Shown piece by piece: positions 25,535 through 29,741 of a stretch of DNA of 64,000 bases (the first letter of the stretch is position 1; the number at the start of each line of letters is the position of its first letter). A model generated the notes under the pieces. It saw nothing but the letters and a program-made list of their open reading frames with translations, was not told the DNA's origin and searched no databases. The DNA is taken from the sequence record OR958571.1. One strand, given 5' to 3'. The translations under genes were made by a program, and so were the position numbers. This DNA is from Escherichia phage 121/2022-2B.

Positions 25535-25587
25535 CCTCATGTTATGTCAGTAAAACTACTATAACACAATACGAGGGACTTGTAAAC
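25535..25587 (-). promoter_or_regulatory. early-promoter/hairpin cassette (PeSL-like), copy A of a 53-bp repeat
   Basis: minus strand: GTTTAC (-35), ~18 nt, TATAGT (-10), then ACATAACATGAGG with RBS; 50/53 identical to 40809-40861. Confidence 0.6.
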
Positions 25588-27644
25588 TACATTTTGAACT
25601 TTTTAGACATTCCGTTGATGTTAACCAAAGAAGCTAAGATTTGAGAAACTTCGTTTTCCTCTTCTTTTGATTCTTCTACAAGGAATTGATTAAATCCAGC
25701 CATTGGACGAACTTCACCAGTTTCCATCAGATGGTCGCCATCATATACTGATTCTTCTAATTGTTCAGAAGGAGGAACGATTGTACCTTCGATTAGATAC
25801 TTGTTATAAGCAGTTTCTTTCATCATGTACGTACTTACTTTATTAATCTTCAGTAAAATTCCACGCGGCAAAATAACTTCAGCTTCGGATGGAAATCCTG
25901 ATAAATGACCTGGAACGATAACTTTAACTCGTTCAGCTCCTTTAATTACCATACCTACATTAGTTTCAGCGTCTTCATTCGCATATGTAGAATGACTACC
26001 CATATGCATTAAATCTTCAGCATCAACTGAACCTTCTCCTTCACCAGAAAATACTGCTCCGGAATCATCTAAGGCCATATAATTTTTACCATATTCACCG
26101 AAGATATTTGGCTTGAGTGAAGTAGATACAAAGTTCTTGAAATAGAACATTTTATTTTCTATATTATGACGTAAAGTTTTAAAGGTAACTTCTTGCCCAC
26201 GATAAAGAGTAGTTCCTGGAGGAAGAACTGAACCTTTAGAAAATGCAGAATCCAGCGTCTCAATATGTTTAATAGCTCGTTCCATATATTCTTCACGGGT
26301 AGAATCAGGTTTACCTAGAAGGAACGAGTTCATTTCAACATATGAATCTGCGCAATAATCTTCAATTACATCAGACTCAGCCTGAGTTAATCCTTTTGGA
26401 GTTACTTCAGTGCTTGCATATTCATATGCCTGAGCAGCAGATTCATCAATTAATTTATAAATTCCGTTCATTACAAATTGAATAATAGCTGTCTTTTCAT
26501 CTGGTGTAGCTTTAGAACCTTTAACTAAATCATTGACAATTTTCTTAATAACATCAAAGCTATTAGAAATATTAATGTCAGCAAGATCGCTTAAAATTTT
26601 ATCAGTTTTATAATCAAAGAATTCTTTATTCTTTAAATATTCTTGAGAACCTTGATATGTTATATCGCTCTGCAGCTTGATAGATGGATCGCGTAAACGT
26701 GCATGGGCCAATGCAATATGATTTCGGAAGCTTTCGAGTTCATAATCACTAGATTTAAAACGAGAAGCACTTCTCATACCACCGATAGCTCCTTTGCTAA
26801 AGTTTGAACCAACCTGAATAACGCCAGAGTTCATTGGTCCTTCTGCTTTATATACCGGAACTTTAGATTCAAACTCTTGATATTTCTTAGCAGCGAAGCT
26901 ATCACCCTGAAGTGAAGCATCGACAGTAGAATATTGAGCTTGTGCTGCTAATCGACGACTAATTTTAGTTTTCTGAATAACAGCTTGATCCGTGCGCTTA
27001 TCATTTTCTAAAGCAATAGAAGCAGCAACAGCAACAGCTTTAGGAACAGCATTACCTGTTTTGACATCTACATAAACATCACCAACCTTTGATTCAACTT
27101 TTGTGAATAACTCAGTTGAAATAGGAGGTACACCTGGAATGTCTTCTAAATTGGCATTTTTACGGTAAACCATAATATATGCATACTTTTTATCGTAATC
27201 CCAGATTTCCTTTAAAAGAACATATCGACCTGCTCCTTTAGTACGTACTAAACGGTCAGCAATAACTTGCATTTGACGAGCTGCGCCATTTGTTTTACTT
27301 TTTAGTACGCGGAATAGGCATGCATCAATTTTATACTGTTTCATTGTTTGAAGAGCAGTATCAAAAACAGCATTAATGACACCAATTGGATTTCCACCCA
27401 AGTTTTTAAGTTTAACTAATGATAGTTTCTCATTAACACCTATCATTACGATATGCATCATTTTATCGCCTGGCTTAACGTTTTTATTTGTATCACCGCC
27501 AGAGGTGTATGTACAAAATCTAAATCCAGGAAGCACGCTTTCTTCACCGGCTTGAATAGCAAAAATTTGAGGTATTTTATGCTTAGGATTTAAGTTAACA
27601 ACCGGCGCCGAAGCGCCGTCAAATAATTCTGTAATAAGTTCCAT
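25587..27644 (-). CDS. Alt-like ADP-ribosyltransferase paralog (second copy)
   Basis: 685 codons; N-terminus MELITELFD and first ~230 residues highly similar to adjacent Alt; R/STS/ExE elements YRGQ, FVSTSL, SEAEVILPRG; own AAGGA RBS. Confidence 0.8.
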   Translation of the reverse strand: MELITELFDGASAPVVNLNPKHKIPQIFAIQAGEESVLPGFRFCTYTSGGDTNKNVKPGDKMMHIVMIGVNEKLSLVKLKNLGGNPIGVINAVFDTALQTMKQYKIDACLFRVLKSKTNGAARQMQVIADRLVRTKGAGRYVLLKEIWDYDKKYAYIMVYRKNANLEDIPGVPPISTELFTKVESKVGDVYVDVKTGNAVPKAVAVAASIALENDKRTDQAVIQKTKISRRLAAQAQYSTVDASLQGDSFAAKKYQEFESKVPVYKAEGPMNSGVIQVGSNFSKGAIGGMRSASRFKSSDYELESFRNHIALAHARLRDPSIKLQSDITYQGSQEYLKNKEFFDYKTDKILSDLADINISNSFDVIKKIVNDLVKGSKATPDEKTAIIQFVMNGIYKLIDESAAQAYEYASTEVTPKGLTQAESDVIEDYCADSYVEMNSFLLGKPDSTREEYMERAIKHIETLDSAFSKGSVLPPGTTLYRGQEVTFKTLRHNIENKMFYFKNFVSTSLKPNIFGEYGKNYMALDDSGAVFSGEGEGSVDAEDLMHMGSHSTYANEDAETNVGMVIKGAERVKVIVPGHLSGFPSEAEVILPRGILLKINKVSTYMMKETAYNKYLIEGTIVPPSEQLEESVYDGDHLMETGEVRPMAGFNQFLVEESKEEENEVSQILASLVNINGMSKKFKM

Positions 27645-27647
27645 GAT

Positions 27648-29741
27648 TTATCCTTGAACGAACTTGTAAGGCATGTTTGTAATATCTATGCAAGACGCAA
27701 TAATTCCAAGAGATGATTCGACTTTATGTTTAACATTTGATGAAACAAATGATGCAAAATCAACTCTGTCTTCTATTTCAATATCACCTGTCATTGCAAC
27801 TACTTCACCAGTTTCCATTAGACGGTCACCGTCATAAATTACTGATTCGGTGAGTTCTTCCGTAGTCATAACTTCAGCTTGAATGAGTTTTGTATTATTA
27901 GATGTTGTTCCGTCATTATTAGAAGCATCAGTTATTTTATTAACTTTGACCATCAATCCGCGTGGTAGAATAACTTCAGCTTCTGTTGCTATTCCGAGAC
28001 TTCCTGGATATACAACATTAACTTTATGAGCTCCATCAATTGCCCATCCTATTTGAACTTTAACGTATTCAGGATTTTCTTTATACGCTCTTATTTCATT
28101 TGGATTAATAGTTATTCCTTCTTCATTTTTATCAACTGTCAATTCATTACGAGCTTCTGGTTCTAAAAGACCAATACCAGCATGTGTAATTCCAAAACGT
28201 CCAAAAATGATAGGAGTTAAAGAAGTAGATACAAAATTTCTGAAATAGAACACTTTATTTTTAACTAGTGCTTCGTATATAGGAGCAGTCATACTTTGAG
28301 CACGATAAACTGTAATGCCTTCTGGTATACGGTCACCATTTTCAAAAGCTGAATCTAAGTTATTTATAGCAGATTCAATTTCTTTTTCACTCATTACATC
28401 ATATCGTTCTGGATTGTAGCGTCCTAAAAGAAGATTATTGATGTCAGTATATCCTGAACCGCAATACTCTCTAATGCCGCGCTTTTGTGATGGAGTATAT
28501 TTAGAACCATCACGGGCAATAGTAATATCAATCATTGGACCTGCACCAATTCCAGAAAAGCTATAAATCATTCGTTTGAGGAATTTAGTTTTTGCTGCGT
28601 TCCAGGAATTTTTAGTTATTTCTTCCCAGACTTCATCTGGCTGTCCTTTACGGGTTTTATTATGTTTATCAAGCCAATTATCTTTATATTCTTCAAAGAG
28701 TTGATTAACGGCTGCTGCGTATTTTTCTAAACATTTTATTGAAGTAGTTGGTTCATTTTTAATCGCATTAAGAATTACATCTTTAATTTTTTCAGAAACT
28801 TCACCAACCTCACTCATTGGAAAGAATTTATAGTCATAATGAAGTTCATCTGCAGTTCCTTCAGCAATAATTTTTGCTGCCTTAGTTTTAGAAGCTAATG
28901 AATTAATTCCAAGTTTCATTTCTTCTGCTTCGGGAATTAAAGGAGCGGTAGCAGGTTTATTGAAATTAGCTGCGGTAGATTCATACTTTTGGAATAATTC
29001 ACTTTCAAATCTAGAAGATTCCAATGACTGACTTTGTGCAATTGCTCTACGGGAAATTTTAACTTTAACGATTACAGCTTGGTCAGAACGTTTATCGTTT
29101 TCTTGTGCAATAGATGCTGCAATTGCCTCATTTTTAGTTACTTGAGCTCCGGTATCTTTATTGATATAAACATCACCGACCTTCGATTCAACTTTAGTAA
29201 AGAGCTCGGTACTAATTTCAGGAACTCCTGGAATGTCTTCTAATGATACATTTTTACGATGTATAAGAATATATGCATACTTTTTATCATAGTCCCAGAG
29301 TTCCTTAAGAAGGACGTATCTGCCACCTGAACGATTGCGGATAAGTCTATCAGCAATAAGTTGAATTTGACGAGCTTGACCAGCAGTTTTAGACTTAAGA
29401 ATACGGAGCATGCAGGCATCAATTTTATACTGACGCATCGTCTGCATCGCAACAGTAAAAACTGAATTGATGTAATTAATTGGGCTTGGACCGAGACCTT
29501 TTAATTTAGCAATTGAACCTTTAGCAGTTAATGTAAAAGGAACAATATGCATCATTTTATCACCCATTTTTAAATCGCGATTAGTATCACCTCCAGATGT
29601 ATAGGTACATAAACGAAAGCCTGGTTGTTCAATTGCGTCATCAACATGAACTGAAAAAATTTGCGGTATTTTCTTCTTTGGATTTAAGTTTGTAATCGGA
29701 AGAGTAGTATCTTCGTCAAATAATTCTGTAATGAGTTCCAT
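27648..29741 (-). CDS. alt: Alt ADP-ribosyltransferase (packaged internal head protein)
   Basis: 697 codons from second Met; YRAQS, FVSTSL, TEAEVILPRG motifs; N-terminal MELITE resembles prohead-protease site. Confidence 0.85.
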   Translation of the reverse strand: MELITELFDEDTTLPITNLNPKKKIPQIFSVHVDDAIEQPGFRLCTYTSGGDTNRDLKMGDKMMHIVPFTLTAKGSIAKLKGLGPSPINYINSVFTVAMQTMRQYKIDACMLRILKSKTAGQARQIQLIADRLIRNRSGGRYVLLKELWDYDKKYAYILIHRKNVSLEDIPGVPEISTELFTKVESKVGDVYINKDTGAQVTKNEAIAASIAQENDKRSDQAVIVKVKISRRAIAQSQSLESSRFESELFQKYESTAANFNKPATAPLIPEAEEMKLGINSLASKTKAAKIIAEGTADELHYDYKFFPMSEVGEVSEKIKDVILNAIKNEPTTSIKCLEKYAAAVNQLFEEYKDNWLDKHNKTRKGQPDEVWEEITKNSWNAAKTKFLKRMIYSFSGIGAGPMIDITIARDGSKYTPSQKRGIREYCGSGYTDINNLLLGRYNPERYDVMSEKEIESAINNLDSAFENGDRIPEGITVYRAQSMTAPIYEALVKNKVFYFRNFVSTSLTPIIFGRFGITHAGIGLLEPEARNELTVDKNEEGITINPNEIRAYKENPEYVKVQIGWAIDGAHKVNVVYPGSLGIATEAEVILPRGLMVKVNKITDASNNDGTTSNNTKLIQAEVMTTEELTESVIYDGDRLMETGEVVAMTGDIEIEDRVDFASFVSSNVKHKVESSLGIIASCIDITNMPYKFVQG

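Follow-up and report, generated by a model that had tools for sequence, protein, structure and literature searches.

As a preliminary description of the DNA considered here had stated, and as the T4 record confirms, bacteriophage T4 carries a single full-length alt gene, whose product, Alt, modifies proteins of the host, among them RNA polymerase alpha, by ADP-ribosylation. In the 64,000-nucleotide (nt) stretch of Escherichia phage 121/2022-2B that we analyzed (from here on, the window), a Tequatrovirus (T4-like) sequence, two adjoining intact open reading frames (ORFs) on the minus strand resemble alt: copy 1, which lies upstream (positions 27648 to 29741), and copy 2, which lies downstream (positions 25587 to 27644). 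This arrangement raises the question of what the second gene is, whether it still encodes an enzyme and what that enzyme might contribute to infection. The alignments and profile searches described below show both genes to be intact and to encode predicted arginine mono-ADP-ribosyltransferases of the Alt/VIP2 R-S-E clade, with all catalytic residues in place; the tandem pair itself is already known and belongs to the regular annotation of T-even genomes.

Two intact members of the Alt family

The preliminary description presented the locus as a tandem, diverged pair of minus-strand, Alt-type ADP-ribosyltransferase (ART) genes of 697 and 685 codons, a view on which the ORFs, BLASTP, Pfam and PHROG agree. 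Copy 1 matches Pfam family PF03496 (ADPrib_exo_Tox) with 129.9 bits (1e-37) and copy 2 with 73.5 bits (1.8e-20), both above the gathering score of 23.4, and PHROG 802, 'Alt-like RNA polymerase ADP-ribosyltransferase', matches both proteins end to end (1e-271 and 4.5e-257, respectively). Aligned to each other by BLASTP, the two are 41% identical over 719 columns (E = 2e-158), with segment identities of ~53 to 80% over residues 1 to 238, 13 to 30% at residues 240 to 420, 30 to 57% in the ART core and 23 to 47% in the tail. Both the sharing of the N-terminal ~230 residues, including the MELITE start, and the divergence of the central ~200 residues and of the C-terminus, as read earlier from the translations, were thereby recovered.

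On the basis of a three-way alignment with T4 Alt, we divided the proteins (in copy 1 numbering) into an N module (residues 1 to 238), a middle or M region (239 to 410), an ART domain (411 to 620) and a C-terminal part (621 to 697), for which the identities between the copies are 68%, ~20% (18 to 21%), 37% and 37%, respectively. On the minus strand of the window, copy 1 comprises the N module at 29028 to 29741, the variable helical middle at 28512 to 29027, the ART core at 27882 to 28511 and the C tail at 27651 to 27881; the same parts of copy 2 (685 amino acids) lie at 26928 to 27644, 26430 to 26927, 25785 to 26429 and 25590 to 25784.

The catalytic elements named beforehand (YRAQ/YRGQ, FVSTSL and EAEVILPRG) are kept in both copies, and careful alignment found no residue lost. 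Copy 1 has R480 (in VYRAQ), S505-T506-S507 (in FVSTSL) and E587-A-E589 (in EAEVILPRG), and copy 2 has R482 (in LYRGQ; codon at 26199 to 26201), S507-T-S509 (26118 to 26126) and E587-A-E589 (25878 to 25886), the last within the same EAEVILPRG motif. These R, S-T-S and E-x-E residues are invariant in a five-sequence ART alignment, and across 59 family members, conservation reaches at least 90% at R482, S507, S509, E587, E589 and LPRG592-595 (numbered as in copy 2). A PDB sequence search with full-length copy 2 gave no match, and toxins were reached only by the ART-domain profile of the Alt family, which matches BECa, CdtA, iota Ia, Vip2 and Certhrax with YR, STS and ExE in register. An AlphaFold2 (AF2) model of copy 2 (predicted local distance difference test score, or pLDDT, of 80.2; predicted template modeling score, or pTM, of 0.77) consists of an alpha/beta N domain, a long helical middle and an ART core, and a Foldseek search with this model retrieved Vis, Certhrax, C3bot, CDTa and VIP2 (E values of 3e-7 to 1e-4; target TM scores of 0.6 to 0.68); in the predicted structure, copy 2 has the ART fold. 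An ExE signature predicts arginine specificity. Taking together the Pfam and PHROG matches, the ART profile, the AF2 model and the conserved residues, we therefore consider both products to be Alt-type R-S-ExE mono-ADP-ribosyltransferases with complete active sites.

For copy 2, the ratio of nonsynonymous to synonymous substitution rates (dN/dS) was 0.03 to 0.06 among five orthologs, which have exactly 685 codons and no indels, with dS reaching 0.24; for the ART domain, in five orthologs, dN/dS was 0.03 to 0.04 at a dS of ~0.4 to 0.47. By these ratios, copy 2 is evidently under strong purifying selection and not in decay, and this selection, together with the intact catalytic residues, makes it highly probable that the copy 2 gene encodes a functional enzyme.

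T4 as the exception among the T-evens

The preliminary description had left room for the second full-length copy being a novelty, a suggestion that existing annotation contradicts. The full-length second gene was named alt.-2 in the RB14 record (2009) and is described in the T6 record by the words 'apparent insertion in alt.-2; also similar to alt'. Entries in RefSeq contain 'Alt-like RNA polymerase ADP-ribosyltransferase (x2)', and an 'alt gene duplication' is annotated in the Ac42 record. Even the T4 RefSeq record states that 'alt.-1 and alt.-2 together reflect an old duplication of the first part of gene alt'. The alt genes of T2, T4 and T6 are also reported to be the subject of a paper by Koch and Rüger in 1994, which is relevant here. 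In addition, Nolan et al. in 2006 (PMC1524935) described paralogs of alt, among them a duplicate of full length in 44RR.

At least 80% of the 4.8-kb region is contained in 356 records, T6, RB14 and RB33 among them. When records carrying an allele-specific middle domain at ≥90% identity were counted, the T6-type upstream allele was found in 319, the T4-type upstream allele in 174 and the downstream paralog in 401; setting the 319 and 174 upstream alleles against the 401 paralogs, we therefore estimate that about four fifths of Tequatrovirus records carry the intact pair.

Compared with T4 Alt, copy 1 is 70% identical overall (N, 99%; M, 33%; ART, 65%; C, 93%) and copy 2 is 41% identical overall (N, 68%; middle, ~10%; ART, 38%). 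Given the low identities in the M and ART parts, neither copy is a strict ortholog of T4 Alt in the sense of high identity along the full length. Copy 1 shares 96% nt identity with the alt genes of T6, RB14 and T2, and copy 2 is 98 to 100% identical at the amino acid level to the gene in the same position in T6, RB14, RB33, fPS-65 and ~400 other records. Copy 1 evidently is the T6/T2 allele and not the T4 allele, and copy 2 evidently is the paralog that was deleted in T4.

The trace of that deletion can be followed in the alignment. T4 alt.-1 and alt.-2 correspond to the opening ~348 nt of copy 2 (97% nt identity); T4 shows a 1-nt deletion near codon 54 and lacks ~1.69 kb (25607 to 27296 on the minus strand of the window), after which the alignment resumes ~20 nt before the stop codon of copy 2. 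PHROGs 23015 and 15247 (profiles of 61 and 67 positions) match residues 1 to 56 and 62 to 117 of copy 2 and, judging by the sizes of the profiles, presumably represent T4 alt.-1 and alt.-2. From the remnant, the deletion and the frameshift, it follows that the T4 state is derived and that the window holds the intact form; T4 is the exception among the T-evens because most of its second copy was deleted. In summary, the tandem pair almost certainly represents the known T-even alt gene followed by an ancient full-length paralog, the usual state in Tequatrovirus, from which the T4 state derives.

Variation at this locus also concerns the upstream gene, which occurs in Tequatrovirus as two sharply different alleles with nearly identical N and C ends, 33% identity in the middle and 65% in the ART domain. 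Both combinations with the paralog exist: the T4-type allele is combined with it in fPS-65, and the T6-type allele in T6 and phage 121/2022-2B. The paralog is lost or broken in T4 and Pu-Krd-SF7 (deletion), in sb1 (interrupted copy) and in KAW1E185 (fusion). In KAW1E185, a single chimeric alt gene (3501 to 5558 of the compared locus) matches the upstream T6-type gene over nt 1 to 1806 (97%) and the downstream paralog over nt 1754 to 2055 (95%); as these two matches overlap, the crossover must have taken place within the 53 nt encoding the ExE motif. In the same 53 nt, the two copies in the window share an identical stretch of 15 nt.

A constant N module and variable enzymatic parts

Both copies begin with MELITE-LFD, the MELITE hexapeptide being identical, and the 59 family members show hardly any variation at E6 and F8; for T4 alt, the annotation of record X15811 reads '6 amino acids cleaved off'. 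The Alt N module (~240 amino acids) is recognizable by alignment in copy 1 and copy 2 alike, at the identities to T4 Alt given above. Its database relatives carry Pfam PF26846. While a word-indexed protein search with the module gave 6 hits, mostly truncated, HMMER run exhaustively on 1.84 billion representatives yielded 69 clusters only. In these, the module always occupies residues ~1 to 240 of proteins of 600 to 712 amino acids, and 57 of the 59 full-length members carry PF03496. We had considered that the module might be a general capsid-delivery domain for many kinds of effectors; since 57 of the 59 full-length carriers are ARTs, this idea was rejected. The N module is dedicated to ARTs.

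Two elements are hypervariable across the family, the M region and the insert that separates STS from ExE (residues 526 to 550), and both are likely specificity determinants.

To these observations we add a comparison of N modules among three lineages with tandem pairs, namely, the window (26928 to 27644 and 29028 to 29741), dhabil (locus 701 to 4888) and Ac42 (locus 3486 to 7461). Within a genome, the paired modules are 68% (phage 121/2022-2B), 64% (dhabil) and 57% (Ac42) identical; between genomes, identities are 32 to 47%, below the within-genome values in all three lineages. The ART domain of the upstream dhabil gene is 83% identical to that of the upstream gene in the window, whereas gp48 and gp54 reach only 64 to 65%, and the middle and ART parts of the dhabil genes follow gene position across genera. 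This combined pattern suggests that either the N module evolves in concert or the enzymatic cassette is exchanged, and it would fit adaptation of the N module to a partner particular to each genome, taken here to be the head core, with an exchangeable warhead joined to the module.

A proposed route into the host and its alternatives

In T4, ~40 copies of gpAlt are part of the scaffolding core, where gp21 removes a small N-terminal peptide, and the protein is present in the capsid and injected with the DNA (PMC9958956). We propose that both proteins encoded in the window probably follow this route. Late transcription of both copies would start at the TATAAATA promoter that precedes copy 1 (29765 to 29772, minus strand) and yield one message; for copy 2, we infer late expression from the gap of only 3 nt that separates its ATG from the stop codon of copy 1. 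The conserved ~238-residue N module would then build both proteins into the prohead scaffolding core, and the gp21 prohead protease would cut the MELITE hexapeptide off both, as it does for T4 Alt; the new N-terminal peptide expected for copy 2 after this trimming is LFDGASAPVVNLNPK. Finally, both proteins would be injected together with the DNA and would ADP-ribosylate arginines of host proteins, their target sets being different and set by the hypervariable helical middle and by the variable insert between STS and ExE. On the evidence of its N module, we consider packaging and injection of copy 2 moderately likely, and, with slightly less assurance, we also favor the view that its targets differ from those of copy 1, as the divergence of the enzymatic parts would suggest.

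First among the alternatives is that copy 2 is an active but unpackaged ART, acting late inside the producing cell on, for example, host or phage proteins. ModA and ModB act in this way, from within the infected cell. Such a role would be compatible with two observations, namely, an identity of only 68% between the N modules of the two copies and the low copy number of Alt, ~40, in the T4 head (PMC9958956). However, copy 2 keeps the whole N module and the exact MELITE-LFD processing site, and the module is found almost solely at the N-terminus of Alt-length ARTs. Moreover, the two N modules of a pair remain similar in each genome even though their enzymatic parts have drifted apart, a likeness not easily accounted for unless the module has a virion partner common to both proteins. 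We therefore regard an unpackaged enzyme as unlikely.

Second, the two enzymes might be redundant, in that they share their targets (e.g., Arg265 of RNA polymerase alpha) and the duplication only raises the dose. Both proteins do share the EAEVILPRG motif and the ExE signature with its predicted arginine specificity, but the copies are only 37% (ART) and ~20% (middle) identical, and yet each ortholog is 95 to 100% conserved across hundreds of phages, a combination that one would not expect of a dosage duplicate. In addition, the sequence just before ExE, which we take to be the ARTT loop by analogy with C3-type ARTs, differs between the copies (GIATEAE in copy 1 versus SGFPSEAE in copy 2), and redundancy seems to us quite improbable.

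A third possibility, that copy 2 is a decaying, nonfunctional duplicate heading toward the T4 state, has very little to recommend it: the 5' remnants that are all that T4 and Pu-Krd-SF7 retain, the interrupted copy in sb1 and the fusion in KAW1E185 do indicate that loss is tolerated, but the 685-codon ORF is intact in ~400 records, all catalytic residues are kept and the purifying selection expressed in the dN/dS of 0.03 to 0.06 already largely refutes decay. Finally, an assembly artefact, for which nothing beyond the tandem arrangement itself would speak, can be dismissed, since the copies are only 69% identical at the nt level even in the best-conserved 687 nt, their longest exact common stretch is 21 nt and the arrangement recurs in hundreds of independently sequenced genomes. 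The same two values, 69% and 21 nt, rule out recent gene conversion between the copies in phage 121/2022-2B.

The reading that we prefer, two enzymes that are both loaded into the head and injected, bears on more than this one phage. As a genome feature, the pair is ordinary, with a second alt gene annotated in hundreds of Tequatrovirus genomes; what gives it weight is that copy 2 represents a conserved, probably injected ART in ~80% of T4 relatives. Work on phage ADP-ribosylation has been carried out almost entirely in T4, which lacks the copy 2 enzyme; the literature that we searched yielded no biochemistry specific to the copy 2 protein, on its targets and role, and no virion proteomics for either copy of a two-copy phage. 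A biology of two enzymes would be invisible in the model phage T4 because T4 deleted the gene.

More tentatively, and with some doubt, we propose that most T-even phages might inject two different ADP-ribosyltransferases and that the alt locus might be a two-slot effector system, in which a constant, genome-specific N module for capsid loading is coupled to an exchangeable warhead made up of the middle and ART parts. If this were true, the N module would be kept alike between both genes of one genome, the warhead would be exchanged between phages, even across genera, and would sometimes be reshuffled at ExE, as in KAW1E185, and the second enzyme would have a host target of its own, perhaps a defense or toxin protein. 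In any case, the domain pattern points to the parts that are likely to govern target choice, i.e., the hypervariable middle and the variable ART insert, as opposed to the constant N module.

Expression signals and neighboring genes

The late promoter box upstream of copy 1 is an exact match to the T4-type sequence and lies ~20 nt from the start of the gene; the T4 and T2 alt records (X15811 and X69893, respectively) have a late promoter annotated at the same position relative to alt. A Shine-Dalgarno sequence for copy 2 (AAGGA, in caAGGAtaaatcATG; 27651 to 27655, minus strand) is found within the final codons of copy 1. This spacing and the 3-nt gap suggest that the two copies are co-transcribed and that copy 2 is translated either independently or by coupling. 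Just upstream of the late promoter, a terminator-like hairpin (AAAGGCC-TTCG-GGCCTTT; 29778 to 29795, minus strand), read from the sequence, overlaps the stop codon of alt.1, and a terminator is annotated at the equivalent place in the KAW1E185 and fPS-65 records.

A second exact TATAAATA occurs within copy 1 (28361 to 28368, minus strand), ~720 nt upstream of the start of copy 2, and could be either fortuitous or a late promoter internal to the gene. An extra in-frame ATG (29742 to 29744) directly adjoins the MELITE start of copy 1: counted from there, the ORF spans 27648 to 29744 and encodes 698 amino acids (MMELITE), and from the MELITE ATG at 29741 it encodes 697. The longer, 698-codon form is annotated for T2 (X69893), and the T4 and T6 records place the start of alt at MELITE.

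On the minus strand, the gene order is alt.-3 (DUF5498), the two ART genes, alt.1 (Phage_blade), the DNA ligase gene gp30 and 30.1 to 30.3; the plus-strand neighbors are gp29, gp48 and gp54. Between gene 30/alt.1 and alt.-3/gene 54, this order is identical to that of T4, T6 and RB14. The closest database matches are Tequatrovirus genomes at ~96 to 97% nt identity, the best record reaching 97.2% over 4.8 kb and none being identical.

Outside the ART pair, the downstream neighbor is the alt.-3 homolog (25236 to 25526, minus strand; 96 amino acids), assigned from the ORF list and Pfam (DUF5498). Directly after the copy 2 stop codon, this gene has an early-type promoter-like site of its own (TTTACA-17-TATAGT with TG; 25586 to 25558, minus strand), and an early promoter is annotated at the equivalent place upstream of alt.-3 in the fPS-65 record. 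In T4, C-terminal extensions of Alt.-3 lead to phage escape from the CmdTAC defense system (PMC11618068). Between the convergent gp54 and alt.-3 genes, a GC-rich hairpin (25210 to 25231) scores as a terminator on both strands. Farther away, a 75-codon ORF (32633 to 32860, minus strand) lies in another frame within the 30.3 homolog, where T4 has gene 30.3'.

Comparison with known systems

T4 Alt (gpAlt; NP_049811) has its locus, the position of its late promoter and an N module with a cleaved MELITE in common with the pair in the window, as well as the R-S-ExE residues and a C-terminal YDGDxLMETGE motif; it differs from copy 1 mainly in the middle (33%) and ART (65%) parts. The alt genes of T6, T2 and RB14 are closer still: copy 1 is a T6-type allele with the same length (697/698 codons) and a middle region that is 91 to 97% identical, the differences being at the strain level only. 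Similarly, RB14 alt.-2, the T6 gene noted as an insertion in alt.-2 and the second Alt-like gene of the RefSeq records are the same gene as copy 2 (98% amino acid identity, 685 codons and the same position), with no difference of substance. T4 alt.-1 and alt.-2, in which the middle and ART regions are gone and the frame is split, cannot encode an enzyme, unlike copy 2.

Among bacterial toxins, C3bot, Vis, Certhrax, CDTa, iota Ia, VIP2 and BECa have the ART fold and the R-S-ExE/QxE layout of the active site in common with the Alt pair. In contrast to the pair, the C3 and binary toxins are secreted bacterial proteins with eukaryotic targets, have neither the Alt N module nor phage-capsid delivery and show <20% sequence identity to the two Alt proteins.

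The closest parallels to the arrangement as such are found in other Straboviridae. Dhakavirus dhabil/CUA3, Acinetobacter phage Ac42 and Aeromonas phage 44RR (ORF187c) have two adjoining Alt-family genes at the same locus, and in these pairs, as in the window, the N modules are alike within a genome and the enzymatic parts have diverged. By position, the dhabil genes appear to be orthologous to the copies in the window, with ART identities of 83% between the upstream genes and 59% between the downstream genes, whereas the Ac42 pair, at ART identities of 32 to 39%, shows no clear orthology to either copy.

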